22,150 bases of DNA from a virus (taxonomy: Duplodnaviria > Heunggongvirae > Uroviricota > Caudoviricetes). The position numbers and the translations under genes were made by a program. Below are positions 220-22,150 of this stretch, piece by piece (positions within the stretch are counted from its first letter, which is position 1; each line of letters opens with the position of its first letter). Location: the IMG/VR virus record IMGVR_UViG_2617270955_000009. One strand, 5' to 3'. The notes under the pieces were generated by a model. The model saw only the letters and a program-made list of their open reading frames with translations. It was not told where the DNA came from and did not search any database.

Positions 220-300
220 CGCGAGCACCTCTTCCGGTTTTGTTGATAGTGCCATTTTAGTTAATTTATCCTTATAAAACAAACAGATAAACAAAATACA

Positions 301-1943: not shown

Positions 1944-1957
1944 TTTTCATCACCTCC

Positions 1958-4825: not shown

Positions 4826-4881
4826 GGTTTTCTCACTTCTGAATCAGGGTTAACCGGTCAGCCAGGCTGACCGGATGAAAA

Positions 4882-5400: not shown

Positions 5401-5412
5401 CGGTCAGACTCC

Positions 5413-6603
5413 TTAATTGCTGTTAACCGAGGTGACCAGATTTGCCAGGTATTTATCGGTAATACGCTGGCGCAGGGTCAGGTTTTCAAGAGGAGGCACC
5501 GGGGTATAGTCGTAGTCGATATACAGTTTTCCGGCCTTGAGGGTTTCCGCATCGTTGGATTCTTCGCTGAACCAGCAGGTCGCATCCACGATATAGCCGT
5601 TTGTTTTCAGCTCACGGAATTTGGCATTGATACCGTCAACGATGTCGCGAATCAGCGTTGCGGTGATGGGCTTGTCCACCGCCCACATGTGCGCCTCAGC
5701 CATCGTGTCGGCCAGCACCTGCGCGGTGCGGGTGTAGTTTTCAAAGAGGAACAGCGGGTCATCAGAGCAGGTACGGTTACCCCAGAAGCGGAAACCGTCG
5801 CGGCGAATCAGCGTAGTGACGCCTGACTCGTTAAGCAGGTCAGCATCAGTGCCGGACTCCTGCAAATCCCAGAATACAGATGCGCTGATGCCGGTAACAC
5901 CGTTTACCCCGACGTTGGACAGCGTTTTATGCCAGCCCTGCTCCTGGTCGATTTTAGCGCGCAGACCCAGCGCACGGGCGGTGGCATACGCGGTGGCGGT
6001 GGTGCTGGTGACCGTATCCCATGCGAGGAAATCCGGCCAGATGACCATCAGCTCACGCTGGCTGAAATTCTGGCGGTAGGCTTTCACCTCGGAAATGGTT
6101 TTACAGCCCCATGCGCTGATATACCCGAAAGCGCGCAGCTTCTGACAGACAGATGCCAGTGCAACAGCCACCTCTTTGGTGTCCAGTCCCGGTACGCCGA
6201 GAATACGCGGTTTAACACCGGTTACCGACTCCGCCGCCAGCAGGGCTTTCAGTCCGGTGTACTGACCGTTTTCGTCGGTGGTGCCGATGATATTGGAAAC
6301 GGTCTGCGCAAGTTTCGTTTCTTCGTCGTCGCCGGTGCCGTCTTCAACACGCACGACAACGGTGACCGGTTTTGACTGGTCAGCGATGGCCTGCAACGAC
6401 GCCGCCAGCGTGCCTTTTTTACCAGCCTTTGCAATTGCGCTCTGCACATTGGTAATCAGCACCGGTTTATTGAGGGGGAAGGTTTCCGCATCCGCATCGC
6501 TGGCCGTGCAGACCATGCCGACAATGGCAGTGGATACGGTGGAAATGACGCGGGTGCCGTCGTTAATCTCCAGCACCTGCACGCCGTGATGATAGTCACT
6601 CAT
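5413..6603 (-). CDS. FI: Contractile tail sheath protein FI, 396 aa
   Basis: 396-aa ORF; length and synteny match P2 gpFI. GGAG Shine-Dalgarno sits about 10 nt upstream of the ATG on the minus strand. Confidence 0.92.
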   Translation of the reverse strand: MSDYHHGVQVLEINDGTRVISTVSTAIVGMVCTASDADAETFPLNKPVLITNVQSAIAKAGKKGTLAASLQAIADQSKPVTVVVRVEDGTGDDEETKLAQTVSNIIGTTDENGQYTGLKALLAAESVTGVKPRILGVPGLDTKEVAVALASVCQKLRAFGYISAWGCKTISEVKAYRQNFSQRELMVIWPDFLAWDTVTSTTATAYATARALGLRAKIDQEQGWHKTLSNVGVNGVTGISASVFWDLQESGTDADLLNESGVTTLIRRDGFRFWGNRTCSDDPLFLFENYTRTAQVLADTMAEAHMWAVDKPITATLIRDIVDGINAKFRELKTNGYIVDATCWFSEESNDAETLKAGKLYIDYDYTPVPPLENLTLRQRITDKYLANLVTSVNSN

Positions 6604-6704
6604 CCGTTTAACTCCGTGGTTAATGGGTGCAACTATTTTCTGTTGTGCGAAGCATGAGACGCTATTTGACCTGGCTGGTCAGTGAATGAAACAACAGATA
6701 AAGA
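6604..6704 (-). promoter_or_regulatory. Expected late promoter region for the FI-FII-E-T-U-D operon (P_F equivalent); exact elements not resolved
   Basis: About 100 bp between a terminator hairpin and the FI start. Contains a TGACC-N5-GGTCA dyad (6667-6681) and a TGTTGT...ACAACA pair, but I could not find an exact TGT-N12-ACA Ogr-site consensus. Confidence 0.3.
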
Positions 6705-6729
6705 AAAGACGGGCAATCAGCCCGTCTTT
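6705..6729 (-). terminator. Rho-independent terminator hairpin (minus-strand oriented)
   Basis: AAAGACGGG-caatcag-CCCGTCTTT, a 9-bp stem with 7-nt loop, followed on the minus strand by the T-rich tract TCTTTATCTGTTGTTTC. Confidence 0.6.
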
Positions 6730-6777
6730 AAATCACAAATTTTGACAGTTTTTGATTTGCATTCGAGAATAACAGTT

Positions 6778-6800
6778 CGGGGGAGAAAAAACCTCCCCCG
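6778..6800 (-). terminator. GC-rich hairpin immediately 3' of the cargo operon (probable terminator)
   Basis: C-GGGGGAG-aaaaaac-CTCCCCC-G, an 8-bp G/C stem 15 nt after the TAA stop at 6815-6817; the downstream minus-strand tract (GAACTGTTATTCTC) is only moderately U-rich. Confidence 0.45.
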
Positions 6801-6814
6801 CCCACGTAACTTGC

Positions 6815-7864
6815 TTAACTACATGAATCAATGATGTTTTTCACAAGCTTATTTATTTCAGATTCATTAGTGCCAAATTCACCCGCTTTAAAATTAATAC
6901 CTCGCGCTGCAAGATTTCTTTTTATTTTACTTACTTCACTCAGCATAAAGTCATAATTTAACGTTTTTTCTTTAATGCCCTTTGAATATATTACAGGGAA
7001 GGCTTTCATTAATGCCGCATATCCTGTGAGTTTACTTAAATAATATTCCCTTGGTGTATTCCACTCAACTGGATAGACATTGCTAATAGCATTAAAATAA
7101 TTCAATATTATTTTTTGAATTACAGCGTCATTCTCTTCGATAAAATAATCGCGGAATATACACTGATTATTTGGCGTTAATGGCAGATTCATTTTTAACA
7201 TTCTTGCATCATCATCAGGTTTTTTTGAAATATGTTGGATAAGATATTTAATGAAAGTGCTTTGTGATAATGATGCATTATCTTGGTTTATTTCCTTTTT
7301 CCCAAGCATTTTTAGCTTTTTATAAAAAGGGGAATCAGGATTACTGTTTATTCCTCTCGCGATTTCGTGGCATGTTTTTTGTGGACTCCTGCGTTCTGCA
7401 AGCGAAAATAAATCATATACAATTGATGGATTTACACGAGTTTGTTTACTATTAATAATTGAGAAAACATAGGCTTTTTCTTCATCAGTAAGATCAAACA
7501 TTAAAACAACAGGTAGTTCAAAAAGTTTAGCATTAGAGGAATTTTTAATTCCCCATAATCTGTGTTGACCATCGATAACATCACCTATAACCACTTCAGA
7601 CTCAAAGTAAAAATAGGTATCATCCATTTTTAAATTGGATGAATCATCGACGGAAATTATGATCGGCGTTGGAAAAGTCGCATCCGGCTCACTAGTGTAC
7701 TTTGCGATTTCTGAAACTCTTGATGATGAAATATCCCTTTGCACACCAAATTCGAAATCTCTGCGACGATCAACTCTAACTATATCGAGCAAGTCAATGG
7801 CTCTTATTGATGTTAAATAGAAAGTACCGATTGGTTGATTAACTTCAATATATTTCAACTTCAT
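6815..7864 (-). CDS. DGQHR-domain protein (DndB-like, ParB/sulfiredoxin-fold), 349 aa; accessory cargo gene B
   Basis: Exact DGQHR motif at residues 98-102 (nt 7559-7573, VIDGQHRLWG), preceded by the family-typical N-terminal QPIGTFYLTSIRAIDLL element. AT-rich codon usage. GGAG Shine-Dalgarno 8-11 nt upstream. Start ATG overlaps the stop of the upstream membrane gene (ATGA at 7861-7864). Confidence 0.8.
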   Translation of the reverse strand: MKLKYIEVNQPIGTFYLTSIRAIDLLDIVRVDRRRDFEFGVQRDISSSRVSEIAKYTSEPDATFPTPIIISVDDSSNLKMDDTYFYFESEVVIGDVIDGQHRLWGIKNSSNAKLFELPVVLMFDLTDEEKAYVFSIINSKQTRVNPSIVYDLFSLAERRSPQKTCHEIARGINSNPDSPFYKKLKMLGKKEINQDNASLSQSTFIKYLIQHISKKPDDDARMLKMNLPLTPNNQCIFRDYFIEENDAVIQKIILNYFNAISNVYPVEWNTPREYYLSKLTGYAALMKAFPVIYSKGIKEKTLNYDFMLSEVSKIKRNLAARGINFKAGEFGTNESEINKLVKNIIDSCS

Positions 7865-8460
7865 ATCATAACTCCTTTACCATCATCAGTTACTTCATTG
7901 GTTGCCATTGTCTGATCTATAACTATTGCATCTTCTTTTTCTATATAACTTTCATCATTTATATCTGTATGTGCAGTAGCGTTAAGTTTTAATACGCCAA
8001 ATGTATAGCATACTAAGACTATAGAAATAACATAAATTATAGGTTGAGTTAAACCGAATGTTAAATCATTAGAATTTGGTAGGATTAAATCCTTTGATTG
8101 CGTAGCAGCGTATATTATACCTGATAATTGTAATAAAATAATCAATAATATTATTGATATGATTTTTATTGTTTTAAATTCAAGTTTTGAACTAAAAAAA
8201 GTTACAAACATAGGCCCAAGGGCAGAGGCTATTAATGCAATGGAAAATGTGTAAAAACTTCCTGACGAACCTTCTATGTAAATAGATTGATCTAGTGGTA
8301 TTGAATGTGAATAATATCTTATGATTATATTTGCAATAATCCCCATTTGCCCACAAACAACTGTAAAAACGATCCAAATAAAAAACTCTCTTTTGTTTTT
8401 TCTTATCGCATCGAATGGATAGGAAAGGGATTTCTTTAATATTTGCCAGTCTTTACTCAT
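7861..8460 (-). CDS. Small integral membrane protein, four predicted TM helices, acidic C-terminal tail (199 aa from ATG; 202 aa if the GTG at 8467-8469 is used); accessory cargo gene A
   Basis: Hydrophobic segments FFIWIVFTVVCGQMGIIANIII, FYTFSIALIASALGPMFVTFF, IKIISIILLIILLQLSGIIYAA and TQPIIYVISIVLVCYTFGVL; C-terminal DINDESYIEKEDAIVIDQTMATNEVTDDGKG. The ORF-track start at 8469 is a GTG; the first ATG is at 8458-8460 with AAGAG upstream. Confidence 0.7.
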   Translation of the reverse strand: MSKDWQILKKSLSYPFDAIRKNKREFFIWIVFTVVCGQMGIIANIIIRYYSHSIPLDQSIYIEGSSGSFYTFSIALIASALGPMFVTFFSSKLEFKTIKIISIILLIILLQLSGIIYAATQSKDLILPNSNDLTFGLTQPIIYVISIVLVCYTFGVLKLNATAHTDINDESYIEKEDAIVIDQTMATNEVTDDGKGVMI

Positions 8461-8646
8461 GTTATGCACTCTTTATTTAAACTTATCAACAATATGTAAC
8501 TATCAATTAATAACCGTTTACTCTTTTCAAATAATAAAATTATAATCATCAAAAAAATCGACATTATAATTAGACAACATTTTTAACACTAAGTGATACC
8601 TGACTCATGTCTCCAGACCCTAAAACCGCTTGCATAATTTAGAATG

Positions 8647-8675
8647 ATAATACTACCTTATAGTAGGCTTGTGAA
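8647..8675 (-). promoter_or_regulatory. Candidate sigma70-type promoter for the cargo operon (TTCACA-17 bp-TATTAT)
   Basis: Read from the minus strand of the AT-rich intergenic region; reasonable -35/-10 spacing but one of several possible matches in AT-rich DNA, with a long (about 180 nt) leader. Confidence 0.2.
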
Positions 8676-8864
8676 CTTATATAGCCTGAGTCAAGTAATT
8701 AATAAATCACTTATTTCGTTTTTTTTGCATTTGGTCGCTGTGATTTTTTCATAAACAAACTTACAATGATGTCAGCAATGTCTGCTCTTGGCACAGAGCG
8801 GACTGTCAGATTAGTTTTTACTCTGTGCCATAGATGTATAAACTCACATCAGAGCTTATACAAT

Positions 8865-9443
8865 TTATTGTGGCATTTCAGGCCATTCTATATCCGGAGC
8901 ATCTTCCGGCTGAATGCGATTCAGTAGCACACGGTATTTTTTCCAGTGTGTCAGGCTTAACTTTTCTTCCTCAGTTGCCATATCCAAATCGACAGCATCC
9001 TGCAGCGTGGCAATGATTTCACCTGCATATGCAATCTGCTCTTTCTTCTGAGACTCAGCCGCTCTGACAAGTGCATCACGCTCTGCATTCTCATCATTCA
9101 CCCACGCATTTCCGTTCCATTTCTGATAATCCCCCTCCGGGGAAATGGCTGTCACGTCTGGAGATAATGCGCCAAGTTCAGAAATATAAATGGCTGCTCC
9201 CGTTTTCGTTTCGTATACGGTCTTTCCGCGATGGTCTTCCATCAACTCCCATTTCATTTCATCTGCATTGAAAACGGCTGCATAACCAGCCGGTATATCA
9301 GGCGGCGCAATATCTGTACTGTTTGCAGGCAAACCTGTATACGGAGGAATATATGCATCACTTTCGCCAATAAATTCATTGGTTCCATCAAGTAAATTGA
9401 AAACGCGGATAGTTTGTGCTTCTGCACTCATTCTGAAAGCCAT
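8865..9443 (-). CDS. G: Tail fibre assembly protein (Tfa / gpG-like chaperone), 192 aa
   Basis: 192-aa ORF immediately 3' of tail fibre H with a Tfa-typical conserved C-terminus ([29 protein letters not shown]). Confidence 0.85.
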
Positions 9444-12061
9444 TATGCAAGCCTCACAATATAGTTAAATGCGATGTTTTTGACGGTGTTTTCGGTATTA
9501 CCTGTAGCATTAACGGTAATAGAGTGCCCGTGTGAGCCAATAGCAACCGTGTGTGAATGTGCACCAATACCAACCGTATGATTATGTGCGCCAATATCTA
9601 CCGTGTGGGCATGATTCCCGGCAGCTCCTGATGTGCCATTAAACGATGGGTTGTCAAAGCCTGTTTTACCGGTTTCACCATTAGTATTGGCATTCCCTCT
9701 GTAAATGGTATGTGTATGGTTACCAGTGGTATTAGTGGTTTTTGTTCCGTAGTTAAACGTACTGACTGTCTTCGTCCCGTAATCAAATGAACTGGTCGTT
9801 TTCGTCCCTAAATCCGTATTTGACGCACTGGCACTGTGAGTATGCGATTTAATCCCGTCCTGTTCCTGTGACAATACGGCACGCCCACTGGCGGGTTTGC
9901 CCTTGATTGTCCAGCCGCGCATATCTGGAATAACACCAGAAGGATAGACAATAGCCAGTTTCGGATATGCAGCCTTATCAAACGTCTGCCCCTGCATAAT
10001 TGCATAGCCTGCAGGTGGTGTATCTGATGGCCACGGCAGCGGAACACCAGGCGGAAACGCTTCAATATCTTTCGTCCCGTCAAAGGTTACGCCGTTAATT
10101 GTCCTTGCCGTTTTCAGCTTTGTTGCTGTAGCAGCATTGCCGGACAGTTCGCCTGAAAGACCGGCGCTGAAGGTTTGTTTCGCCGCCCATGTCTGGGCTT
10201 CGTCAATAATTGGCACACGTCTTGTGGTGATCGTGCGACTTCCCGGATTTCCTGAAATACGCACCATAAAAAAGCGGTAGTTCGCTTTACTTACAGTGCT
10301 GCGCCATACATGCATTGAGCGCCCCGCACCGGAATCATCACTCGGACCAACTGAGATGTTTATCAGGTTGCCATCAATGACGCCCCAGTCCATACCTTCG
10401 GGAATGTTGGTCATGTTATCAAGCCGAACGGTTATCAGACTGCCCGGCACAAAGTCGTAGGTCTGCCAGTCCAGGCTGGAGAGTTTTGCCACTGCACCGC
10501 CGATACCCAGATTCAGGGGAAGTGAATACGAGGTGTAGACTTCACGCCATTCGCTCCACGAGCTGCCGGTATAGACGCGCTCAAACGTGCGACCTTTAAG
10601 GGTTGCACCTGTTCCGGCAGTTGTATAACGCTGCCATACGTTAACACCATCAAAGCGCCTCAACACTTCCAGAATCCCGAGGACTGTCACGCCGTTTCCG
10701 TCCAGTATTGGACCGTTGGTCGCTTTACCTGTAACGCTGTAAATACCTGGTGAAGTCACCTCATTCAAATCCCCGTCGTAATAACGACTCTCTGACTGAT
10801 GACCGACTCTTAACCACGGTTCCCACTGTGGATTTGATGCATCCCAGCTTGCCGCAAGGCAGCGGACATACATATTTCCACGGCGAGTGGTATAACGTTG
10901 CGTTCTTCCATAATTCCCGCCTTCGAGGATCTCAAGCATCCCCTGAGCAAAGCCGCCTTCCTCTGGATAATTGCGTTCATATGAAGCTATAGCCGAGCTA
11001 CTGTTACGCCATAAACCAAGATGCTCGGCGGCTCCAAGCGTATTCAGGTCTATAGTCGTACTCAAAGGGCGGGTAGCAGATTGAGTGTGACGCCATACGC
11101 CCCACGGACCATCAGTGCCATTCCACTTATTGGCGAGTTTACGCATGTAAACATTGCCGTCTCTCGTGGTAAAGCGTTGCGTACCTGCAAAATTGCCGGC
11201 AGCAAAAACCTCAAGCACACCGACAGCATTATCTTCCGGGAAATTTTTCTCCAGTGTTGAGTTAGTTGAGGTAGCTTTAGACCAGATCCCCAGATAAGCC
11301 TTAACGGGACCAAATGTATTCAGGTCGGCATCAACCGGCATTTCGCCATTGTTTTTCATAAACGTCAGACTGGTAACGCCAACATTGTCCAGAAAAGCTG
11401 ATTTATCCTGGATATCTGCACCATTCTGATTTTTCGCCAGACGTGAATTTGCGTTGTCATTTGCTGCCTTGACCGCTTTTGGCGTTGCCGCCAATGACTC
11501 ACTGGTGCTGTTTGTTGCACTGCTTAACTGAGTAAAACCTTTTTCTGTCAGCGTGGCGTCAGGATGGCGGCGGGACTGCTCATGTTCTGCGATTTTGTCA
11601 TCGACGTAATCCTGCGTCGCCATCACTGTGCTGGCATCAATACTCAGCTCAACGGACGCCACGTTACTGACAATAATAACCATGCGGCAGGTCTGCGCAC
11701 GCCCGGAGCCTTCAGCGAGTTCAGGCTTATAGCTTTCTGCCATGTTGGCGACCGCAATCAGTGTTCCGGCATCGTCATACAGACCAAGCTCACGCATCCA
11801 GAAGCCGCCCACTTCGGGCGGTACAACCAGTTCAGCCACGATATAGTTTTTATTCTTATTATCCACGCTGACTTTATTCAGAGCGTGACGCCAGACCTCA
11901 TGCACCAGTTTCGTCTGACCGGCATCCGGCACCGGCAATTTGCCATTACCGTCACCCACGGCCATTGCAGACAGGTTTACTTTTTTCCCGCCGGGGACAG
12001 TGGCGGCTGCCAGCTTCGCGGCTCCGGCAGTAGTGATAACGGTTTTAAATTTCGTGCTCAT
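9443..12061 (-). CDS. H: Tail fibre protein H, 872 aa (longer than the 669 aa of P2)
   Basis: N-terminus ([21 protein letters not shown]...) is P2 gpH-like; the central part has three ~70-aa internal repeats; the C-terminus has His-x-His repeats ([36 protein letters not shown]). Confidence 0.88.
9515..9630. repeat. Tandem ~27-bp repeats within the 3' end of H, encoding the histidine-rich (HxH) repeat
   Basis: Plus-strand units resembling caaccgtgtgtgaatgtgcaccaatac / caaccgtatgattatgtgcgccaatat / ctaccgtgtgggcatgattcccggc; the period of 27 nt equals the 9-aa protein repeat. Confidence 0.6.
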
Positions 12062-12071
12062 TGTTTCTCAC

Positions 12072-12602
12072 TTATCCGGGATAAACAGTAATAACATCAC
12101 CATCACAGACCACACCGCCTGTATACAGATAGCCGGGAATGTCCTGGATAATGTTCAGGCCGATAAGGTGGCGACTTGCGGGTTTGGCATCGGCAATCAG
12201 CCGTTCCATTTCCAGATACATTTCCTCTGTGATACCGCTTTCCAGCACACCGATATCAAGACGAAAGGTTCCGGCCGGGTCGTTTGTCTCCCACCATTCC
12301 TTTACGTTAATGAGATAGCCGAGCGGCTCCACCACACGCCGGATTGCGCCGACAGTGCCTTTATGACAGTGGATGAAATAGGCATCGCGGATAACGGCGC
12401 GTTTTGTCGCTTCCGGCCACTTTTCATCCCACCTGTCGACCGAAAACGCCCACGCCAGCCACGGCAGCAGATTTGCCGGGCAGGTGTCCGGGTTCCACAG
12501 CTCACGAATACTGACCGGCGTTTTTTCAATTTCCGCACAGGCTTTTGCGGCGGCGACCTCAAGCGGTGATGAGCCGGTCGGCAGCAGGCGCGAATCACTC
12601 AT
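12072..12602 (-). CDS. I: Baseplate/tail protein I, 176 aa
   Basis: 176-aa ORF between J and H; length and synteny match P2 gpI. Confidence 0.85.
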   Translation of the reverse strand: MSDSRLLPTGSSPLEVAAAKACAEIEKTPVSIRELWNPDTCPANLLPWLAWAFSVDRWDEKWPEATKRAVIRDAYFIHCHKGTVGAIRRVVEPLGYLINVKEWWETNDPAGTFRLDIGVLESGITEEMYLEMERLIADAKPASRHLIGLNIIQDIPGYLYTGGVVCDGDVITVYPG

Positions 12603-13503
12603 CCGAGCCTCCGGTCACGACGCGGTATTCGGTACAGAAAGACGCCTGCGTATTGTTGAGCACGATGTCGGCCAGCGGTGCAGCCAGTTCGACACGCTGC
12701 ACGCCTTCCACATGCAAAGCGGCATAAATGGCAGACAGACGGATGTCGCGCCCCAGCCGGTGCTGTGCCGTGATGTACGCTTCCAGCTTTTTCACGGCGG
12801 CGGCGCGGATGGGTTCGCTTTCGGGACCAGGGTAAAGGTAAAGCGTGGCGTTTATCTGGTATTCAACGATGGCGGCAGACTGCACGGTCACGCGGTCGGC
12901 CACCGGCCTGACGTCCTCGCCATTAAGGGCGTTACGCACCACCGCCAGCAGGTCTTCGGATGCGACACCGTTATTTTCACGTGACAGCACAGAGATGGTG
13001 ACGCAGGCCGGAGAAGGACTGGTGACAGAGATATCCGCGACACGCCCGTCGGCACTTCGACCATGATACTGATAGGCCCCCACCGACCCGGCGACGCTTA
13101 AACCTTCAAACGCCTGCTGAATACGCAGACGATAATCGGTGTCAGATTCCATCACGGCCGGTGTCGGCGGGATAGTCGAATCATCTGCCGGGGTGATAAT
13201 CAGGCGCGTGGTGTTGTAATTGGCACCAATCACATCAAGGTCATTACCGGCAGCACAGGCCAGCATTACCGCCCGTGCGGCCTCATTCACACGCTGACGC
13301 CAGATAAGCTCACGATAAGCATTTTCCTCCAGCAGTTTGACGAGAGGCTCAGATTCCAGCGTCAGGGTACGGGCGACCGCCTCCTGCTGGTCTTCCGGGT
13401 AAAGGGAAATCAGTGTCGCCTTGCGTTCGGCAAGAATGGTTTCAAAGTCCAGCTCCTCGACCACATCCGGTGCGGGTAGCTGGTTCAGGTCGATAATCGG
13501 CAT
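12595..13503 (-). CDS. J: Baseplate assembly protein J, 302 aa
   Basis: 302-aa ORF; length and synteny match P2 gpJ; overlaps the I start by 8 nt. Confidence 0.88.
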   Translation of the reverse strand: MPIIDLNQLPAPDVVEELDFETILAERKATLISLYPEDQQEAVARTLTLESEPLVKLLEENAYRELIWRQRVNEAARAVMLACAAGNDLDVIGANYNTTRLIITPADDSTIPPTPAVMESDTDYRLRIQQAFEGLSVAGSVGAYQYHGRSADGRVADISVTSPSPACVTISVLSRENNGVASEDLLAVVRNALNGEDVRPVADRVTVQSAAIVEYQINATLYLYPGPESEPIRAAAVKKLEAYITAQHRLGRDIRLSAIYAALHVEGVQRVELAAPLADIVLNNTQASFCTEYRVVTGGSDE

Positions 13504-13507
13504 GGTT

Positions 13508-13855
13508 TCAACTCACAGGGATGGTTAACGAAAGTGGCTGGCCGGTGTCGTTGTGCTGGCCGGTTAACGTGACCGTCATTCGCCCGTCAAAACTGCGCTC
13601 AGTGGTGACGGATGACAGGGTGACGCGGGGTTCCCATTTCAGCACCGCCATGTAACAGGCGACCTTAATCTGCAACTCAAGCGCCGGGGTCTGCGGCTGG
13701 TCAATCATTGATGCCAGCAACGAGCCGTAATCACGACGCATCACCCGTGAGCCGACCGGTGTGCGCAGGATATCGCCGATACTCTGGCTGATATGCTCAA
13801 GGTCAGTGACCGTCAGGCCATCACTGCGATTCATTCCGAGATAACGCGCAGTCAT
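13508..13855 (-). CDS. W: Baseplate protein W, 115 aa
   Basis: 115-aa ORF between V and J; matches P2 gpW size; ATGA overlap with V. Confidence 0.85.
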   Translation of the reverse strand: MTARYLGMNRSDGLTVTDLEHISQSIGDILRTPVGSRVMRRDYGSLLASMIDQPQTPALELQIKVACYMAVLKWEPRVTLSSVTTERSFDGRMTVTLTGQHNDTGQPLSLTIPVS

Positions 13856-14487
13856 AGAGGTCCCCCTGTTGTGCCGCCACTGTCGCCGGGGTGTTTATGG
13901 GTATGCAGTACCTTACCGTTTGATGAGAGTTCACCGCCGGTGTGTTCAATGTTGCCGCGCATCGTCCCGCCCTTCTGTACTTCCAGCGTGCCGGTAATCA
14001 GCCTGTTGGTGCAGACCACCTCCGGCGTGTCCAGGGTGACACGGGTTGACGCTTTCACCGTGACCACCGGTACCGTGGCAGTAACAGAATCAGAAGCCGT
14101 CACGCTGGCCGTTTTAATTCCGCTTACCGTGAGTGCACTGGTTTCGGGTTCATACTCAATCACCGCCCCGTCAGAGAAACGGATATGCAGGGCATCAGCC
14201 GACGCAGACGGCGCAGGGTTATCGCCGGAATAAATCCCCGGCAGAACGAACGCCGTGTCGAGTTCACCGCCCACGGCCAGAATCAGCACCTGTTCCCCCA
14301 CGGAAGGTGCCCACCATGTGCGCGAACGACCGGCGCGCTGGGTCAGCCACTGCAGCCAGTCGGTGCACATGCCGCCGGTCTGCACACGGCAGCGACCGGC
14401 GTTAAGGTCGGTTTCGACGACAAGGCCGGTGCGGATCATGTTGCGCAGTGCGCGCGCGAGTTCCTGAATATTTGCGAGAGTGTTCAT
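13852..14487 (-). CDS. V: Baseplate spike/hub protein V, 211 aa
   Basis: 211-aa ORF; length and synteny match P2 gpV. Confidence 0.88.
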   Translation of the reverse strand: MNTLANIQELARALRNMIRTGLVVETDLNAGRCRVQTGGMCTDWLQWLTQRAGRSRTWWAPSVGEQVLILAVGGELDTAFVLPGIYSGDNPAPSASADALHIRFSDGAVIEYEPETSALTVSGIKTASVTASDSVTATVPVVTVKASTRVTLDTPEVVCTNRLITGTLEVQKGGTMRGNIEHTGGELSSNGKVLHTHKHPGDSGGTTGGPL

Positions 14488-14553
14488 AACGGGAAGGATG
14501 CCGCCGGGTCATACCGGCGGCAATGTGACGATGAGGTGTCGGGAATGGCACAA
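14488..14553 (-). promoter_or_regulatory. Expected Ogr-dependent late promoter for the V-W-J-I-H-G operon (P_V equivalent)
   Basis: 66-bp S-V intergenic gap. Minus strand reads TTGTGCCATTCCCGACACC ... TATGAC about 25 nt before the V ATG. A TGT...ACA dyad is present but with 10 nt rather than 12 nt spacing, so the assignment is tentative. Confidence 0.3.
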
Positions 14554-15006
14554 CTAACGGTCGAGGTGCGCCAGGATAATCTCTTCAATCATCTGCACAT
14601 CCTCACCGGTAAAGCCGAGCAGAGGACGCGCCGGATAATCAATTTTCTTACCGTCTTTCCGGGTTTCTTCCGACAGACCGAACTGATGCACACTGGCGAT
14701 TTTCGGCGACTTCCCGCCGTAAAATTCCATTGATGCCTGCTCCGGGCTGGCGCGGATATGCAAAAAACGACTGGTGATAAGTTTCGCAAACATTTTTCGC
14801 TTAACGCGACCGGTCTTTTTTCTGGCGCTCTGCTGCTGGCGTGGCGCATAGGGTGTGCCGTCCGGGGCTTTCTGTGTCATCACCCGACGCTGCTGACTCT
14901 GCCGCAGGCGTTTCGCCAGTTCGGCACTCAGTCGCCGACGCCCTGACGGTGACAGCGACTCAATAAGTCCGGTCAGCCGGTCTTCAAAACGCTTAAACTC
15001 ATTCAT
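14554..15006 (-). CDS. S: Tail completion protein S, 150 aa
   Basis: 150-aa ORF; length and synteny match P2 gpS; overlaps the R stop by 8 nt. Confidence 0.85.
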   Translation of the reverse strand: MNEFKRFEDRLTGLIESLSPSGRRRLSAELAKRLRQSQQRRVMTQKAPDGTPYAPRQQQSARKKTGRVKRKMFAKLITSRFLHIRASPEQASMEFYGGKSPKIASVHQFGLSEETRKDGKKIDYPARPLLGFTGEDVQMIEEIILAHLDR

Positions 15007-15466
15007 CCCACTTGCTCACCAGTTCGCCATTGATATACAGCTCCATCGGGCGGGTAACCGGCTCCGGCGGCGGAGGTTCCGGGATATTCTTCACATGCAG
15101 CGCGCCGTCCACCTCACTGACCAGCGTGCGCTCGGTCAGCATCAGGCTGATGCTGATATCAAAGCTGCTGTCATTGTTGATGTCTGCATAAAACGTGAAG
15201 CCCTTTTTCTGGCCTGCGTCGGTGGTCATGATGTCGGGCTGATTTTCCCGCAGCCACGCCAGCACCGGCACGATGAGCAGGTCAAAATCACCGGTAAAGT
15301 CGGTCACAATGACATTGAGCGTGTAACGCTTTTCGAATGACAACGACGCCGCCAGTGTGGAGGCAATACTCCCGTTATCCACGAATATCCGCAGCATCTC
15401 GGGACTGGTTTTCAGCACCGTGACGGCATCAGTCAGCGCCCTGCGCAGGCTGTCGGGTTTGAGCAT
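14999..15466 (-). CDS. R: Tail completion protein R, 155 aa
   Basis: 155-aa ORF; length and synteny match P2 gpR. Confidence 0.85.
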   Translation of the reverse strand: MLKPDSLRRALTDAVTVLKTSPEMLRIFVDNGSIASTLAASLSFEKRYTLNVIVTDFTGDFDLLIVPVLAWLRENQPDIMTTDAGQKKGFTFYADINNDSSFDISISLMLTERTLVSEVDGALHVKNIPEPPPPEPVTRPMELYINGELVSKWDE

Positions 15467-15719
15467 CGTTTTCGTCCTGACAGTGTTTAATCATTTTTAC
15501 CTGGCTGGCACAGCGTGCCAGCGCGTTCTCAAGCTGCCGGATATCGGCACTTAAATCACCGTTCGTCTCCGGGTCACTGCCCGGCATCGGGCAAAGGCTC
15601 ACTTTCGGGCAGGCGTTGTGGACAATCACTGGCGTCGGTGCAGGCCGGGCGCTGGTGCAACCGGCGCACAGCATCAGGCAGGCCAGCGCCGTACCAGCGG
15701 CGAAAATCTTCGTTTTCAT
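15429..15719 (-). CDS. lysC: LysC, outer-membrane lipoprotein spanin (Rz1-like, o-spanin), 96 aa
   Basis: Signal peptide with lipobox (LMLCAGC), Pro-rich mature region; lies out of frame across the 3' end of lysB and extends into the 5' end of R, the classic overlapped-spanin arrangement. Confidence 0.8.
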   Translation of the reverse strand: MKTKIFAAGTALACLMLCAGCTSARPAPTPVIVHNACPKVSLCPMPGSDPETNGDLSADIRQLENALARCASQVKMIKHCQDENDAQTRQPAQGAD

Positions 15720-15999
15720 TCAGTAACCTCGTGATGGTTTTCTCGCGCTGTGCTTCACGCTTCGCGGCGTTCTCCAGCTCCTGACGCAGTGCCACCTGCG
15801 CCAGCTCGTTTTTGTCTGCTCTGGTGAGGGCAACATGAAGCTGATTTTTCAGCATGGTGATGGTCGTTTGCTGCCCGTTGGCGACGTTGTTCGCCCTGTC
15901 CAGCGAGGCGCGCAGGCTGGCGTTTTCATGCTTCGCCAGAAACAGCCCCGCCACCGCCAGCGATAACAACACGACCAGCACAATCATCAGCTTTGACAT
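15574..15999 (-). CDS. lysB: LysB, inner-membrane spanin (Rz-like, i-spanin), 141 aa
   Basis: N-terminal TM segment (LMIVLVVLLSLAVAGLFLA) followed by a coiled-coil periplasmic domain; matches P2 LysB size. Confidence 0.82.
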   Translation of the reverse strand: MSKLMIVLVVLLSLAVAGLFLAKHENASLRASLDRANNVANGQQTTITMLKNQLHVALTRADKNELAQVALRQELENAAKREAQREKTITRLLNENEDFRRWYGAGLPDAVRRLHQRPACTDASDCPQRLPESEPLPDAGQ

Positions 16000-16412
16000 A
16001 ATTCCCGCCCCTCAAGACGCTGACGACAGGCTTTACGTATCAGCCGGAAAAACAGCGACGCCACAAGATAAATCAGCGCGGTAAAAATCCACCCGGCAGC
16101 GACCAGCGAGATAAACGTCGCCACCATCACCACCAGACCCACCGCCCGTCTGCACCACGTCACCGGCTGCAAAAACAGCGACGTGACAATCTTCACGGCC
16201 AGCGATTCCGGCGGCAGCTCCCGCCCGTAGCGTTCCAGTACATACTCAGTGGCATACACGCCGATACCACCGGCAACCACACAGATAACCGTCTCCAGAA
16301 TCGCCCAGGCGGCGACAAAATTGACGGCCACGCTCTGCGGGTAAATCAGGGACAATGCCAGCATCAGCGCCAGCGACACGTTCAGCATCAGTGAAAGGGA
16401 TAATTTCTTCAT
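15987..16412 (-). CDS. lysA: LysA, membrane protein affecting lysis timing (antiholin-like), 141 aa
   Basis: Multi-TM 141-aa ORF between K and lysB; matches P2 LysA size and position. Confidence 0.8.
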   Translation of the reverse strand: MKKLSLSLMLNVSLALMLALSLIYPQSVAVNFVAAWAILETVICVVAGGIGVYATEYVLERYGRELPPESLAVKIVTSLFLQPVTWCRRAVGLVVMVATFISLVAAGWIFTALIYLVASLFFRLIRKACRQRLEGRELCQS

Positions 16413-16426
16413 GGTGTTTACTCCGT

Positions 16427-16924
16427 TTAAGCCGGTACGCCGCCGGCGGTACGCCAGACGGTGACCAGTTTTTCCAGTGAATGCTCACGCTGACCGTAAC
16501 CGGCACCCGGCAGGGACGCCCAGATATTGCGACAGCGTGAAATGGCGCGCTCAATGCGTCCCGCCCGGATGTCATCCAGCGCACCGCGTTCGCGGATCAA
16601 CTGAATGGCGAGTCTGTCCTGTGACAACGGACTGAAATCAGGCAGGGCAAGCTGTTTGCGGTAGTGCGGCCAGAACAGGTAAAGCTGCTGATAGCGACCG
16701 GAGGCCGTGGATTTTTCACCGCGACGGTTAAACACCTTCGCAGGTCGGCCATGCGCGAACGGGTGGTCACTGTAGTCGGTGAAAATTTCCGGCTTCCCGT
16801 CCAGTCCGGTGACTATCACGTCATAGCCCCGGTTTTTCGTCAGCGGATGGTTCGCCGTCCCTTCGGACACGGCCAGCATGTCGAGAAAGGCGGCGATATT
16901 CTGATGCGTGTTAATTACCGGCAT
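16427..16924 (-). CDS. K: Endolysin K (lysozyme-family), 165 aa
   Basis: 165-aa ORF downstream of holin Y; matches P2 gpK size and position. Confidence 0.88.
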   Translation of the reverse strand: MPVINTHQNIAAFLDMLAVSEGTANHPLTKNRGYDVIVTGLDGKPEIFTDYSDHPFAHGRPAKVFNRRGEKSTASGRYQQLYLFWPHYRKQLALPDFSPLSQDRLAIQLIRERGALDDIRAGRIERAISRCRNIWASLPGAGYGQREHSLEKLVTVWRTAGGVPA

Positions 16925-17205
16925 TACGGTTTCCCCCTGCCCTTAAAACGGCGCTGAATGGCAATCTCAATCACCTGATAACCGGCGATACCCAGCATGG
17001 AGCCGATGCCGCACACCGCAGGCAGTGACAGGTCAGGAAACTGCACCAGAACAACACCGGCAACCATCGAGACAAAACCACCGAGCAACATGCGCCCGAT
17101 AAACAGACGCGGGGTGATGGGTTCACCACCGGCAAGCACCTTGCCGACAACAATCAGCACCCCAATCATGAAAAGCGACAGGACGCTTTTTTCTTCTGCT
17201 GTCAT
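16924..17205 (-). CDS. Y: Holin Y, 93 aa
   Basis: 93-aa ORF with hydrophobic TM segments and a charged C-terminus (RRFKGRGKP); position before K. Confidence 0.85.
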   Translation of the reverse strand: MTAEEKSVLSLFMIGVLIVVGKVLAGGEPITPRLFIGRMLLGGFVSMVAGVVLVQFPDLSLPAVCGIGSMLGIAGYQVIEIAIQRRFKGRGKP

Positions 17206-17208
17206 GCG

Positions 17209-17412
17209 TTACTCCCACAGATTGACAGTTTCAGCCACGGGCGCGGTCTGAACGTCGGGCAGTTCGACGGCGGTGCCGTGCGGCAGCACCGCCCCCAGTT
17301 CAGCCAGTCCCGGATTTGCGGCGAGCACGGCCTCGACCACGCCCTCAGTGCGCCCGTAATACCGGACACAAATGGCGTCGAGCGTGTCGCCCTGTAGCGC
17401 AAAGGTCTTCAT
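17209..17412 (-). CDS. X: Tail protein X (LysM-like), 67 aa
   Basis: ORF 17209..17481 contains MKTFALQGDTLDAICVRYYG... Start set at the internal Met, which gives the 67-aa P2 gpX and an ATGA overlap with the stop of L. Confidence 0.8.
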   Translation of the reverse strand: MKTFALQGDTLDAICVRYYGRTEGVVEAVLAANPGLAELGAVLPHGTAVELPDVQTAPVAETVNLWE

Positions 17413-17921
17413 CAGATTTGACTCACGATGCAGCGCGGCTTGTCCTGGATGCGCGCCACTGCCCAGCGCATATCCCGCCACAGCTCATCAATGGTGCTGT
17501 CTATGCTGTCGGCCTTTTTGTCGCCTTTCGCACTGGCATCCACGCCGCGATAACGCTCATAAAGCGACGCGGTCGCCATCGCACACACGGCGCGCTCGTA
17601 GTAAAAAACTTTGATGCTTTCACCGTCGATATCGTCCGCCGGGACGTCAGCCAGACGCGAAAAACCGGCAGCAATTTTCTGTTCGCGGTACTCGTACAGC
17701 TCCGCATTCGTCTCCGCCATGCCTGACTTGATGGCCTCACGCAGACGGGCGGGGGCGACGGTCTGCTCAAGGCGCATACGTTCCCGGACGCGCTTCGGGT
17801 CGATATCGGGAAAAAAGAACGTGTTTTTAATCACCGGCTCGTCGCCTGCCGGTTGCGGGATGACCGCCGTACCCTCACCGGACACGGGAGCCTCCTTTCG
17901 CGGAATAATCAGCGTCATCAT
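17412..17921 (-). CDS. L: Head completion/stabilisation protein L, 169 aa
   Basis: ORF 17412..17981 trimmed to the MMTLIIPRKEAPVSG start, which is preceded by a GAGG Shine-Dalgarno; this gives the 169-aa P2 gpL length. Confidence 0.82.
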   Translation of the reverse strand: MMTLIIPRKEAPVSGEGTAVIPQPAGDEPVIKNTFFFPDIDPKRVRERMRLEQTVAPARLREAIKSGMAETNAELYEYREQKIAAGFSRLADVPADDIDGESIKVFYYERAVCAMATASLYERYRGVDASAKGDKKADSIDSTIDELWRDMRWAVARIQDKPRCIVSQI

Positions 17922-18020
17922 GACTACCTCAGAAAAGTCGGGCGGTGGACGCCGGTGCAGTGTCAGGTGATTCACCCTCACTGACCGGCGTGCCGCCCTG
18001 GCGCGGGGCGCATTCGGTTG

Positions 18021-18764
18021 TTAACTGGCTTTCTTTTTCGGGCGTCCACGTTTTGCCGGTGTCGCACTCCGGGTCTTACGCGGGGCGCGGGTGGCCGCTT
18101 TTGGCTGCGGCTCCGGCTTCGGTTTCAGTTCCCGCTCCAGTCGTTCAATCTCTTTTTTGACGCCTGCCTGACAGTCGAGCTGTGTCGCACGTTGCAGGTG
18201 AGCCAGCGCACCGGCGGCATCACCACCGTCACGCAGAAACAGACCGGTAATTTTGTGCAGCTTTGCGCGCACTTCATCAGGCATGTCAGCCGTGGCGGTC
18301 AGTTCAAGGGTCTCCGTCAGCAGGCGGGTATCCACAGACTCACCGGCAGCGTGAGCGCGCATGGCCGCAAGCGCCACCTCCTCGGTGAACATGTACGGTG
18401 GGGTACGGCGGTGTTTACCCGGCATGGTCAGACCGTACTTCAGGGCATAACGGGCAATCTCCAGCGCACCGGCAATATCGCCGGTATCCAGACGCCACAG
18501 CATGACCGTCATCAGAATGTCATCCTGTGCACCTTTGCCCTGCTCCAGCACGCCGTTCACCCACGGCAACCAGAACGGCAGCAGTTCGCGTTTTTTCGCG
18601 GCCTTCAGCTCTTTTGAATAAATCGCTTTCAGTGTGCGCTGGTCTGCGGCGAGCTTAACCAGCATCTGCTCATAGACAGTTGCATGTCGCAGCGGGGCGG
18701 CTTCCCGCTGCGCGGTCATCGCTGCCGAGACCCGCATCATGTGGCGCTGTGCGGGACTCGTCAT
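18021..18764 (-). CDS. M: Terminase small (endonuclease) subunit M, 247 aa
   Basis: 247-aa ORF with a basic C-terminal tail (KRGRPKKKAS); matches P2 gpM size and position after N. Confidence 0.88.
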   Translation of the reverse strand: MTSPAQRHMMRVSAAMTAQREAAPLRHATVYEQMLVKLAADQRTLKAIYSKELKAAKKRELLPFWLPWVNGVLEQGKGAQDDILMTVMLWRLDTGDIAGALEIARYALKYGLTMPGKHRRTPPYMFTEEVALAAMRAHAAGESVDTRLLTETLELTATADMPDEVRAKLHKITGLFLRDGGDAAGALAHLQRATQLDCQAGVKKEIERLERELKPKPEPQPKAATRAPRKTRSATPAKRGRPKKKAS

Positions 18765-18767
18765 CGG

Positions 18768-19784
18768 TTACGCTCCCGGCTCTGCGGTCGCTTTAGCCAG
18801 TGTGGAGAAATCACCGACCTTAATTTTTTCCACCAGACAACCGGCGGCGTAGTCTTCCACCACGTAATCAATGTTCATTGACTCGTAGTTCTCCACGCGG
18901 TCGAGTTTCGGGTTTTCCTCAATCACGCGGCGATGGCTGTCATCCATGTAGTAGATGGACAGGTTTTCCAGCTTTGTGATGAGCATCGCATCCGCCGGGA
19001 AGTACGGGACGCGTACCGCCGGCAGGTTACCGATGCGTTTCTGGCTGATGATGACGTCAGCGGCCAGCATTTCGCTGTTGTCCTGCTCCTTGTTGACGAT
19101 GGGAAAATACTTGTCCGCCAGTAGCTGACGTCCCACAATCACCACAAGGTCAGGGTCTTCCTGATACCACGGCTCAATCAGGTTGTTGGTCGCATCCATC
19201 ACCAGTGCGTCAAGGCTGGCATAATCACCGCCCTTACCCACGCGGATAACCTCAGAGATGGTGTGCCCTTCCTCGTCAGTGACCTTGCTCATCACGCGCG
19301 CCGGTGCTTCATTGCGGTATTTCTGCAGCCAGCCGACCGCCACATCCTGTAGCATCGGATTACTGCTGCGGTCAGAGGTTTCGGCACGCCTCACGCCGTT
19401 AAAACCGGCCATGATTAAATCAAGGGACTGGCGTTTGATAATGGCGTTACGGATACGGAGCTGGAAATCCTGATAACGCGCCCACAGGTCAAGCGTTTTG
19501 TAGCGGATATAAAAATCGAAGTTAATCTGGTCGCATTCGTACTTGTTTGACGCCAGCTTCGAGAAGTCCTTCGGCTGACGCTCGGTGCCACCGGCGGTGT
19601 CGCTGGTGCTGGCGATGGAGCCGGTGACACCAATACCAATTTTTTCCCCTTTCATTTCGCTGACCGGCACAATGTTGATGCGGGTCAGAAAGTCAGAGGA
19701 CTCCTGCATGGTGTTCATCAGGGTCTGGGTGACCGACGGTTCAACGGTGAATTTTTTCGACACATCACCGGTGCGTATTTTCAT
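18768..19784 (-). pseudogene. N: Major capsid protein gene N, 5'-truncated by IS insertion (338 codons retained of about 357)
   Basis: ORF is P2 gpN-like from GDVSKKFTVEPSVTQTLMNTMQESSDF onward. The in-frame upstream sequence hits a stop within IS-type repeat sequence (GAGTGATCTCC), and the ATG at 19782-19784 is fortuitous at the junction. Confidence 0.8.
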
Positions 19785-19842
19785 GAAAGGAGATCACTCA
19801 ATAACTTCCATCGAGATCGGGTAATAACATTTGAACAGATCG

Positions 19843-19909
19843 CTGAATAACATCGATGGAGATCACTTTTGACTCATTTTGTTATTCAGTGATCTCCATC
19901 AATGTTATT
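19843..19909. repeat. Imperfect inverted repeat in the IS left terminus
   Basis: CTGAATAACATCGATGGAGATCACT (19843-19867) versus AGTGATCTCCATCAATGTTATT (19888-19909), 1 mismatch in 22 bp; related GGAGATCACTCAATAAC copy at 19789-19805. Confidence 0.7.
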
Positions 19910-19964
19910 GGAACTTCACAGGTGTGTTGATCTGTATCTTTTGCCATTCCGGTAAAGGATACCT

Positions 19965-21506
19965 ATGCCAACAGTTCCAATTTCTATGAGAAAACTTAAA
20001 GAAATTCTTAGGCTTAAATACGGTGTTGGACTCAGCCATCGACAAATTGGTCGTAGTCTTGCAATCTCCCCTTCCGTTGTATCCAGATATGCTAATCGGG
20101 CGGCTCAACTTGGCATAAAGCAGTGGCCCTTACCTACAGGATGGGATGATACAAAACTAAAACATGCGTTCCTTCAGACCCAGGTTAAGATGAAGAAGCA
20201 CTCTCTGCCTGACTGGGCTACAGTACACCGGGAACTGCGTAATAAATGCGTGACGCTGCAGCTACTCTGGGAAGAATACTGTGAGCGTAATCCAGGCGGT
20301 TTTTACAGCTATAACCATTACTGCCGGATGTACCGTGAATGGCTCAAAACCACTTCACCATCAATGCGTCAGGTACATAAAGCTGGCGAAAAACTTTTCG
20401 TTGATTACTGTGGACCTACCGTTGGCGTTACCGACCCTGAGACCGGAGAAATAAGAACTGCTCAGGTCATCGTAGCTGTTCTCGGGGCATCAAGTTACAC
20501 ATGGGCAGAGGCCACCTGGTCTCAGCAGCTTGAAGACTGGGTGATGAGTCATGTTCGCTGCTTCCAGTGGTTGGGTGGCGTTCCTGAACTTGTTGTTCCG
20601 GACAATCTGAAAAGCGCCACATCCAGGGCATGTAAGTATGATCCTGACGTTAACCCTACCTACCAGCAGATGCTTGAGCATTATAATGTCGCAGTTTTGC
20701 CTGCGCGGCCACGTAAACCGAAAGATAAAGCCAAAGCTGAAGTTGGCGTTCAGGTTGTTGAACGCTGGATCATGGCCCGAATCAGGCATGAGATCTTCTA
20801 CAGCCTTGCATCGCTTAATCAGCGCATTCGGGAGTTGCTGGAAAGACTGAATAACAAAATAATGCAGAAGTTGGGTTATTCACGTGCAGAACTCTTCATC
20901 CAGCTTGATAAACCCGCACTGAAGCCTCTTCCTGAAGCCAGTTACAGTTACACCCTGGTGAAGAAAGTCAGAGTTCATGCCGATTACCACGTGGAAATCG
21001 ACAAACATTACTACTCGGTTCCATGTTCGCTGTTAGGCCAGCAACTGGAAGCATGGATCTCCGGAGAACTGGTAAGACTCTTCAATCAGGGGCAGGAGGT
21101 TGCTGTGCACCCGCGCAAGCGTACTTATGGCTACAGTACCCGCAACGAGCACATGCCTGAAGCTCATCGACAGCATGCCACCTGGACGCCAGAGCGTCTT
21201 CTGGAATGGGCGGGGCACATAGGCAGTGAAACTCATAGTTATGTGCTTCATATACTGAACTCTCGTCCACATCCGGAACAAAGCTATCGCTTCTGCCTTG
21301 GACTCCTGAACCTTCATAAAAAATACAGTAAAGCCAGACTTAATGCAGCATGTGCAAGAGCTCTGAAAACAAAGGTATGGCGTCTGTCAGGTATTAAATC
21401 GATCCTGGAAAAAGGTCTGGATAAACAACCTGTTCAGGATCCAAAACCAGATCTGTTATCCACGATGGAACACGAAAACGTACGCGGCAGTGAGTATTAC
21501 CACTGA
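19965..21506 (+). CDS. istA: IS21-family transposase IstA, 513 aa
   Basis: 513-aa ORF with an N-terminal helix-turn-helix region (LSHRQIGRSLAISPSVVSRY) and a central integrase-like region; followed 12 nt later by an IstB-type gene. Confidence 0.85.
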   Translation: MPTVPISMRKLKEILRLKYGVGLSHRQIGRSLAISPSVVSRYANRAAQLGIKQWPLPTGWDDTKLKHAFLQTQVKMKKHSLPDWATVHRELRNKCVTLQLLWEEYCERNPGGFYSYNHYCRMYREWLKTTSPSMRQVHKAGEKLFVDYCGPTVGVTDPETGEIRTAQVIVAVLGASSYTWAEATWSQQLEDWVMSHVRCFQWLGGVPELVVPDNLKSATSRACKYDPDVNPTYQQMLEHYNVAVLPARPRKPKDKAKAEVGVQVVERWIMARIRHEIFYSLASLNQRIRELLERLNNKIMQKLGYSRAELFIQLDKPALKPLPEASYSYTLVKKVRVHADYHVEIDKHYYSVPCSLLGQQLEAWISGELVRLFNQGQEVAVHPRKRTYGYSTRNEHMPEAHRQHATWTPERLLEWAGHIGSETHSYVLHILNSRPHPEQSYRFCLGLLNLHKKYSKARLNAACARALKTKVWRLSGIKSILEKGLDKQPVQDPKPDLLSTMEHENVRGSEYYH

Positions 21507-21517
21507 TACGGGATCCA

Positions 21518-22150
21518 ATGATGAATCATCTTTACGAACAACTGACCGCACTTAAACTCACCGGCTTCCGTGATGCGCTTAAAAAGCAACTTGCTCAACC
21601 GGGCACATACCAGGAGCTGGGCTTCGAAGAACGCCTGTCATTACTGACAGCAGAAGAACTAACCTGCCGTGAAAACAGGAAGGCAGAGCGTCTGATCAAA
21701 CATGCACGGTTCAGACTTAATGCTGAGTTATCAAAGCTGGATTATCGTAACAATAGAGGGCTGGACAGGGCCCTCATCCGTTCACTCAGTCAGGGAAACT
21801 GGTTAACCCTGAAACAAAATATTTTACTGACCGGGGCCACCGGCAGCGGTAAAACGTTCCTGGCATGTGCACTTGGTCATAATGCCTGCCGACAGGGATA
21901 CAAGGTCTACTATTATCGCCTTAAAGCGCTGATGGAACAGTGCTATCAGGGGCATGCTGATGGAAGATACAGCAAACTTTTGACCAGGCTGAATAATAGC
22001 GATCTGCTGCTTCTGGATGACTGGGGGCTGGAACCTCTCTCATCAGAACAGCGTAGCGACCTGCTGGAAATAGTGGATCTGATGTACCAACGAGGCTCAA
22101 TCATCGTAGTGAGCCAGTTGCCGGTGGAAAACTGGTACAAAATGATCGGA
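21518..22150 (+). CDS. istB: IS21-family ATP-binding helper protein IstB (3'-partial, runs off window)
   Basis: My own translation from ATG 21518: MMNHLYEQLTALKLTGF... with Walker A GATGSGKT and Walker B LLLLDDWG; no stop before the window end. Confidence 0.8.
   Translation, partial: MMNHLYEQLTALKLTGFRDALKKQLAQPGTYQELGFEERLSLLTAEELTCRENRKAERLIKHARFRLNAELSKLDYRNNRGLDRALIRSLSQGNWLTLKQNILLTGATGSGKTFLACALGHNACRQGYKVYYYRLKALMEQCYQGHADGRYSKLLTRLNNSDLLLLDDWGLEPLSSEQRSDLLEIVDLMYQRGSIIVVSQLPVENWYKMIG

Follow-up and report, generated by a model that had tools for sequence, protein, structure and literature searches.

IS insertions into the structural genes of prophages are routine, and the insertion described here belongs to a phenomenon that is already known: in the RefSeq annotation of Escherichia coli S88 the same element already sits in this gene, istA and istB lying between two partial 'P2 family phage major capsid protein' pseudogenes. 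The gene in question, N, is the second gene of the Ogr-dependent P2 operon that is transcribed from P_O, ONMLKRS (PMC3931495). During maturation gpO cleaves the first 31 residues of gpN; within this segment the alpha0 helix (residues 1-14) contacts neighbouring subunits, whereas residues 15-26 form no ordered structure in the procapsid (PMC7552001). In P2-like prophages pseudogenes are almost the rule, 98% having at least one (PMC13586616).

The stretch of DNA that we analysed, referred to throughout as the window, is 22,150 nt long and contains the late genes of such a prophage as far as N, followed by an ISEc12 element that runs to the window's end. At its other end, K-12 laboratory derivatives match the window at positions 3-513 only, over ogrK and the adjacent D fragment, with about 96% identity; in K-12 these are the known cryptic P2 remnant, an example of a truly truncated P2 prophage.

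We consider it highly likely that, in the window, ISEc12 transposed into a resident E. coli P2-like prophage and struck N at codon 24 in the orientation opposite to the late genes, that this was a simple and recent insertion, and that the prophage would neither form particles nor lyse its host efficiently unaided.

The ISEc12 element and its junction with the capsid gene

The junction region comprises the following features, with the evidence for each.

18768-19771, minus strand: 3' fragment of N, the P2-family major capsid gene (PF05125, alignment with gpN, comparison with AH20J067 and with ISEc12 ends)
19772-22150, plus strand: ISEc12 (IS21 family), first 2,379 of 2,581 bp (100% identity to RefSeq-annotated ISEc12 copies)
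19772-19964, plus strand: non-coding left end of ISEc12, with the terminal inverted repeat and internal direct and inverted GGAGATCACT-type repeats (repeat search)
19782-19784, minus strand: fortuitous ATG of a 338-aa chimeric ORF, inside the IS terminal repeat (sequence read directly)
19965-21506, plus strand: istA, ISEc12 transposase, full length at 513 aa (ORF; Pfam rve, E=2.7e-10, and Mu-transpos_C_2)
21521-22150, plus strand: istB, helper ATPase, first 210 of 248 codons, cut at the window end (PF01695 IstB_IS21, E=5.9e-53)

Over all its 2,379 visible bases the element shows 100% identity to copies labelled 'IS21-like element ISEc12 family' in RefSeq. Full copies are 2,581 bp long, so that the right-hand 202 bp fall outside the window. 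The left end starts with TGCGTATTTTCATGAAAGGAG at 19772, exactly as in the copies of strains S88 and D5, and the termini are of the IS21 type (5'-TG ... CA-3'), the left end reading TGCGTATTTTCATG... and the right end, in full copies, ...GGTAATACGCA. A repeat search found GGAGATCACT-type motifs in direct and inverted orientation (D1 and I1-I4) within 19782-19910, which, from what is known of the IS21 family, are presumably IstA binding sites. The two-gene arrangement of IS21 elements is also present: istA encodes a DDE transposase with an rve core, and istB, next in line, an IstB-type AAA+ helper ATPase. The length of istA equals that of the annotated istA WP_001298859.1 (1,542 bp), and istB starts 15 nt past the istA stop, the same spacing as in S88. 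Both genes run opposite to the phage late genes; an earlier reading of the window, made from its sequence only, had placed them on the strand opposite to N, and the ORFs and their Pfam domains bear this out.

Comparison with the two full ISEc12 copies of S88 and D5, and with the uninterrupted N gene of the P2-like prophage of AH20J067, places the boundary between N and the IS between 19771 and 19772. The N fragment, a 1,004-bp 3' part, picks up at the second base of codon 24 (GCC) and continues through the stop codon; it lacks codons 1-23 together with the first base of codon 24. Across the junction the minus strand reads ATG AAA ATA CGC A|CC GGT GAT GTG, where codons 1-4 (MKIR) and the first base of codon 5 of the chimeric ORF are IS terminal-repeat DNA. 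The sequence-only reading had estimated that N lacks some 20-25 codons, which agrees with the 23 codons and one base found missing here. It had also placed IS DNA upstream of a fortuitous ATG, which holds as far as it goes, with the refinement that the ATG itself and the first four codons are IS DNA as well.

The minus-strand ORF at 18768-19784 (338 aa) matches PF05125 with E=1.2e-144 over profile positions 15-327 of 327, and its residues 3-338 align with residues 22-357 of P2 gpN (PDB 7JW1, 357 aa) with E=2e-218 and about 98% identity, true identity beginning at G25. A gpN precursor has at its N-terminus the alpha0 helix and a 31-residue propeptide; here residues 1-24 are replaced by the IS-derived MKIRT. 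Judged by its sequence, N in the window is thus an interrupted pseudogene fragment and not a complete member of the PF05125 family. The annotated 338-aa 'N' ORF is a chimera that begins in the IS terminal repeat, and this matters for annotation, since what a gene caller reports as a 338-aa 'capsid protein' is a chimeric pseudogene fragment.

The late region and its cargo genes

Apart from N, the late region looks like that of an uninterrupted prophage. On the minus strand the gene order is ogr-D-U-T-E/E'-FII-FI-(hotspot)-G-H-I-J-W-V-S-R-lysCBA-K-Y-X-L-M-N, which is the order of P2. The AH20J067 prophage, the closest intact relative, which lies between fieF and cpxP, is 98.5% identical to the window at the nucleotide level over 19.77 kb, with two single-base gaps only. 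All 26 late genes other than N are open and have ATG starts, the same lengths as in AH20J067 and 93-100% protein identity. The following of these are needed below.

1-219, minus strand: ogr, 72 aa, ATG start, identical to OgrK of AH20J067
6815-7864, minus strand: cargo gene 1, a DGQHR-domain protein of 349 aa (Pfam DndB, 5e-11; PADLOC DpdB, 1e-16)
7861-8460, minus strand (to 8469 with a GTG start): cargo gene 2, upstream of cargo gene 1, 199 aa, or 202 aa from the GTG start (ORF)
14554-18764, minus strand: genes downstream of N in the P_O operon, namely M, L, X, Y, K, lysA, lysB, lysC, R and S, open and with lengths as in AH20J067
18021-18764, minus strand: M (ORF map)

The window opens precisely with the stop codon of ogr, close to the prophage's attR side. 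A 97-aa ORF that begins at a TTG (1-294) was considered as ogr and rejected as an over-extension of the real gene at 1-219.

An exact match to the Ogr-type late promoter motif TGT-N12-ACA was sought upstream of V and FI and was not found at either place. By eye, the intergenic region between S and V (14488-14553, minus strand) contains TGTGCCATTCCCGACACC, a TGT-N12-ACC with one mismatch to the Ogr-type motif, at the position expected for P_V. Also by eye, the minus strand of 6700-6800, between the cargo genes and FI, has a pair of strong hairpins, G+C-rich and with T runs behind them, gggcgggggagg...ctcccccg and aaagacgggctgattgcccgtcttttc; they probably act as terminators and insulate the cargo genes from the tail operon of P_F.

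The cargo pair sits between the tail-fibre assembly gene G and the sheath gene FI, which is the variable position of the P2 Z/fun type and a hotspot for accessory genes. For the 199-aa protein we found no match in Pfam or PADLOC. Both cargo proteins are 100% identical to their AH20J067 copies, and strain AREA_502 has the same protein accessions.

The sequence-only reading held that ogr, the tail genes and the cargo operon are intact, which the lengths in AH20J067 confirm, all being open, and went on to suggest a grounded prophage kept for its accessory functions. In general, retention for cargo is plausible, and recent work describes conserved defence genes that persist in defective P2 elements (PMC13586616). 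The proposal can be put in two forms: a domesticated prophage under selection for the DpdB-like DGQHR cargo pair, or a producer of headless tails (a tailocin), the tail operons having their own promoters, P_V and P_F (PMC3931495). The cargo pair does resemble DpdB, and its proteins are shared unchanged with the two other strains; however, the cargo is equally conserved in prophages that are uninterrupted, and efficient release of a tailocin is unlikely with R, S and the lysis genes placed beyond the IS in their operon.

The state of the rest of the locus also speaks against a grounded prophage. Such a prophage might show several independent lesions, or one lesion conserved across a host lineage. 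Here N alone is disrupted, with the 26 other genes full length and no second lesion among them, and the left junction occurs in 0 of 5,426 complete E. coli genomes; it was likewise not found in the GTDB representative genomes or in the JGI metagenomes, and the exact 338-aa ORF is on record in one Logan contig, from two samples. Since the late region carries no other damage, the insertion appears recent, and a single lesion in a rare allele points to a recent event and not to long-term retention, the pattern being that of a recent and effectively neutral hit. A recent-looking single lesion in itself neither favours nor rules against selection for the cargo. With no secondary decay and a rare allele, the claim that this prophage is kept for its accessory functions is left unsupported, and we regard either form of it as improbable.

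Beyond the element and downstream of it

The window ends inside istB, and what adjoins the IS on its right has to be judged from other copies. Six ISEc12 insertions in P2-like prophages served as comparators; each is given with its gene, strain and target-site duplication, followed by the duplication predicted for the window.

N, S88: ACTGG
M, D5: CCGTT
lysA, AREA_502: CTCTG
T/E, ST131 strain 439: CTGAG
FI, CMZE120: GCAGG
G, strain 20377: CAGTG
19767-19771, strand not assigned: predicted left copy of the target-site duplication ACCGG in the window, by analogy with the six comparators, the predicted right copy lying at about 22353-22357, beyond the window

In all six the element is 2,581-2,582 bp long, flanked by a perfect 5-bp duplication, simple, and with both flanks kept; a 5-bp duplication has also been recorded for ISEc12 in tssM (PMC10711316). 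By analogy, the window would hold a simple ISEc12 insertion with a 5-bp ACCGG duplication at codon 24 of N. Past its end we would expect 202 more bases of ISEc12, ending ...CACGGTAATACGCA, then ACCGG, and then CGTCGATGCCGTTCAG... (N codons 23 to 1, in reverse complement). Beyond the IS there would thus be a 25-codon stub of N, followed by O, P, Q and the early genes arranged as in AH20J067, with P and Q expected on the plus strand. The predicted right junction was not found in the GTDB representative genomes.

The alternative is that an IS-mediated deletion or rearrangement has brought unrelated DNA to the right of the element. The prophage would then have lost the 5' end of N along with O, P and Q, possibly the early region too, and would be a remnant with a true truncation. 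IS elements can cause deletions of adjacent DNA, the window stops within istB, and K-12 has such a P2 remnant, the ogrK and D fragment that matches the window at 3-513 only. Against this stand the six comparators, every one a simple insertion with a perfect 5-bp duplication and both flanks present, and the left side of the prophage, which is without any damage. We therefore think a deletion quite unlikely. The sequence-only reading had stated that an IS21-family insertion truncates N. That an IS21-family element, ISEc12, interrupts the gene at codon 24 stands; 'truncates' is more than a window that stops 202 bp before the right end of the IS can demonstrate, the comparators all being simple interruptions with both gene halves, and 'interrupts' is the safer wording.

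Normal gpN would not be made from the interrupted N. ISEc12 now lies between P_O and M, L, X, Y, K, lysA/B/C, R and S, that is, upstream of the small terminase gene (M), a head completion gene (L), the lysis genes (Y, K, lysA/B/C) and the tail completion genes (R and S). Ogr-activated transcription from P_O would have to cross 2.58 kb of untranslated antisense IS RNA, and we infer a polar effect of the IS on the genes from M to S. On the antisense strand of the IS we counted four terminator-like hairpins where 3.0 +/- 1.8 were expected, which is not above chance, so that polarity would depend on Rho. It is Rho-dependent termination that underlies the polarity argument, and polarity of this type would starve M, L, the lysis genes, R and S of transcript.

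Without complementation by a co-resident P2-like phage we would then expect no particles and no efficient lysis. Because N is an essential structural gene and because M, L, the lysis genes, R and S are separated from P_O, the prophage is very probably unable to make particles unaided. The earlier suggestion that it is defective thus gains good support by inference, from the interruption of N and the isolation of the M-to-S genes alike. The suggestion that its lysis module is intact is right for the sequence but probably not for expression, the lysis genes being downstream of the IS in the same operon. Many E. coli genomes contain more than one match to the window's late region, and a co-resident P2-like prophage could complement the interrupted one. 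In practice, unless there is a helper phage, this prophage is to be counted as defective or non-inducible.

Could the chimeric ORF nevertheless work? The fragment encodes gpN residues 25-357, including the whole of the mature protein N* (residues 32-357). Since the missing residues 1-24 all lie inside the 31-residue propeptide, the ORF still encodes the whole mature capsid protein together with residues 25-31. The sequence thus places the defect chiefly in expression and in procapsid assembly, with a coding loss limited to the propeptide; if translated, the chimeric ORF might keep some assembly activity.

A prophage that is still functional would require that a protein consisting of MKIRT and gpN 25-357 be translated and assemble, and that read-through of the IS express the downstream genes. 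The ORF is open and in frame and keeps the gpO cleavage-site region, and what it lacks falls within the residues that gpO removes, part of them (residues 15-26) disordered in the procapsid (PMC7552001). However, the alpha0 helix that is lost with residues 1-14 makes inter-subunit contacts in the procapsid, and 2.58 kb of antisense IS separate the ORF from P_O. We found no Shine-Dalgarno sequence before the chimeric ATG, which is preceded by GATCTCCTTTC (minus strand, GAGTGATCTCCTTTC), whereas the start codon of the uninterrupted N in AH20J067 follows an AGGA at a distance of about 10 nt. For the minus strand of 18700-22150 a consensus scan gave no sigma-70-like promoter, and hence none facing out of the left end of the IS. 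Taken together, these points make a functional prophage very improbable.

An assembly artefact, with an N-containing contig chimerically joined to a collapsed ISEc12 repeat, is very unlikely. Misassembly is typical of IS copies, and a genome can have ISEc12 at up to 17 places, but the break coincides with the first base of the IS terminal repeat (TG...), where real transposition would place it. The junction that the sequence-only reading had wanted checked also recurs in the Logan short-read contig ERR13951900_142. Over 11,032 bases this contig has 0 mismatches to the window, and it stops 28 nt inside the IS, as is usual for short-read contigs when they reach a repeat, although it could come from the same isolate.

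ISEc12 in P2-like late regions and the known insertions

Only one aspect of this locus is of wider interest, the apparent over-representation of ISEc12 in P2-like late regions. Seven ISEc12 sites in P2-like late genes, those of the window and of the six comparators, were read directly, and the hit tables add further insertions, among them some in O, P and L/X. When all matches to window positions 1-19771 were sampled at even spacing, ISEc12 was found inside 3 of 20 full late regions, and ISEc22 inside one. Across the 5,426 genomes ISEc12 occupies 5,267 places, in 1,824 genomes, and its frequency in P2-like late regions looks about tenfold above the uniform expectation for a 20-kb target, a figure uncorrected for clonal inheritance, for confounding by host lineage and for relaxed selection.

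In the first seven sites istA was always antisense to the late genes, which raised the idea of a strict orientation bias; such a bias would have suggested selection against transcripts that read through into ogr or the lysis genes. It was refuted by a chimeric query in which the IS was turned round. Within about 2.6 kb of M-N, ISEc12 is present in the window's orientation in 21 genomes and reversed in 11, and any orientation bias is at most weak.

A further case touches the site itself. WP_205883948.1, a 333-aa 'partial' N protein from three NCBI draft contigs, begins at G25 (window 19769-19771) and differs from the window's N at three residues. Its sequence suggests that the same site may have been hit in another N allele, perhaps independently, or that it may be a recombinant descendant.

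Relaxed selection and clonal inheritance may be the whole explanation of the recurrence, and P2-like prophages and ISEc12 may share host lineages. That ISEc12 has a real preference for P2-like late-gene DNA, and acts as a recurrent, semi-specific inactivator of these prophages in E. coli, is a tentative idea that we rate as rather doubtful. If it were true, a very common family of E. coli prophages, which also carry hotspots for defence systems, would be repeatedly inactivated by ISEc12.

Among the known insertions the closest to the window is that in the S88 prophage (NC_011742.1), where ISEc12 (2,581 bp) interrupts the same target gene, N, in the same orientation to the late genes, in a prophage that is otherwise intact. 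The two differ in where N was hit. In S88 the insertion lies mid-gene, leaving a 663-bp 3' part and the duplication ACTGG, whereas here it lies at codon 24, leaving a 1,004-bp 3' part and a predicted duplication ACCGG. A complete mature capsid protein can be encoded by the window's fragment but not by those of S88. In D5, AREA_502, 439, CMZE120 and 20377 the same IS has entered the same kind of prophage as in the window, in other genes. In strain 439 (ST131) the T/E copy is 2,582 bp long (locus 7374-9955) with istA annotated as frameshifted, and the tail-fibre gene H is fragmented; the prophage of that strain is more decayed than the window's.

Outside prophages, the ISEc12 insertion in tssM of E. 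coli ST131 clade C/H30 is comparable in that the element inactivates an essential part of a multi-gene machine, as a simple insertion with the duplication ACTGC (PMC10711316). The tssM insertion is fixed in its clade, at 99.8% of 2,478 genomes (PMC10711316), whereas the window's allele was found in 0 of 5,426 complete genomes. Finally, the ogrK/D' remnant of K-12 and the defective P2 elements (PMC13586616) resemble the prophage of the window in that accessory genes remain where autonomous particle formation is lost, as we expect it to be here. Those elements carry multiple pseudogenes or large deletions, whereas the prophage of the window has a single lesion in late operons that are otherwise complete.
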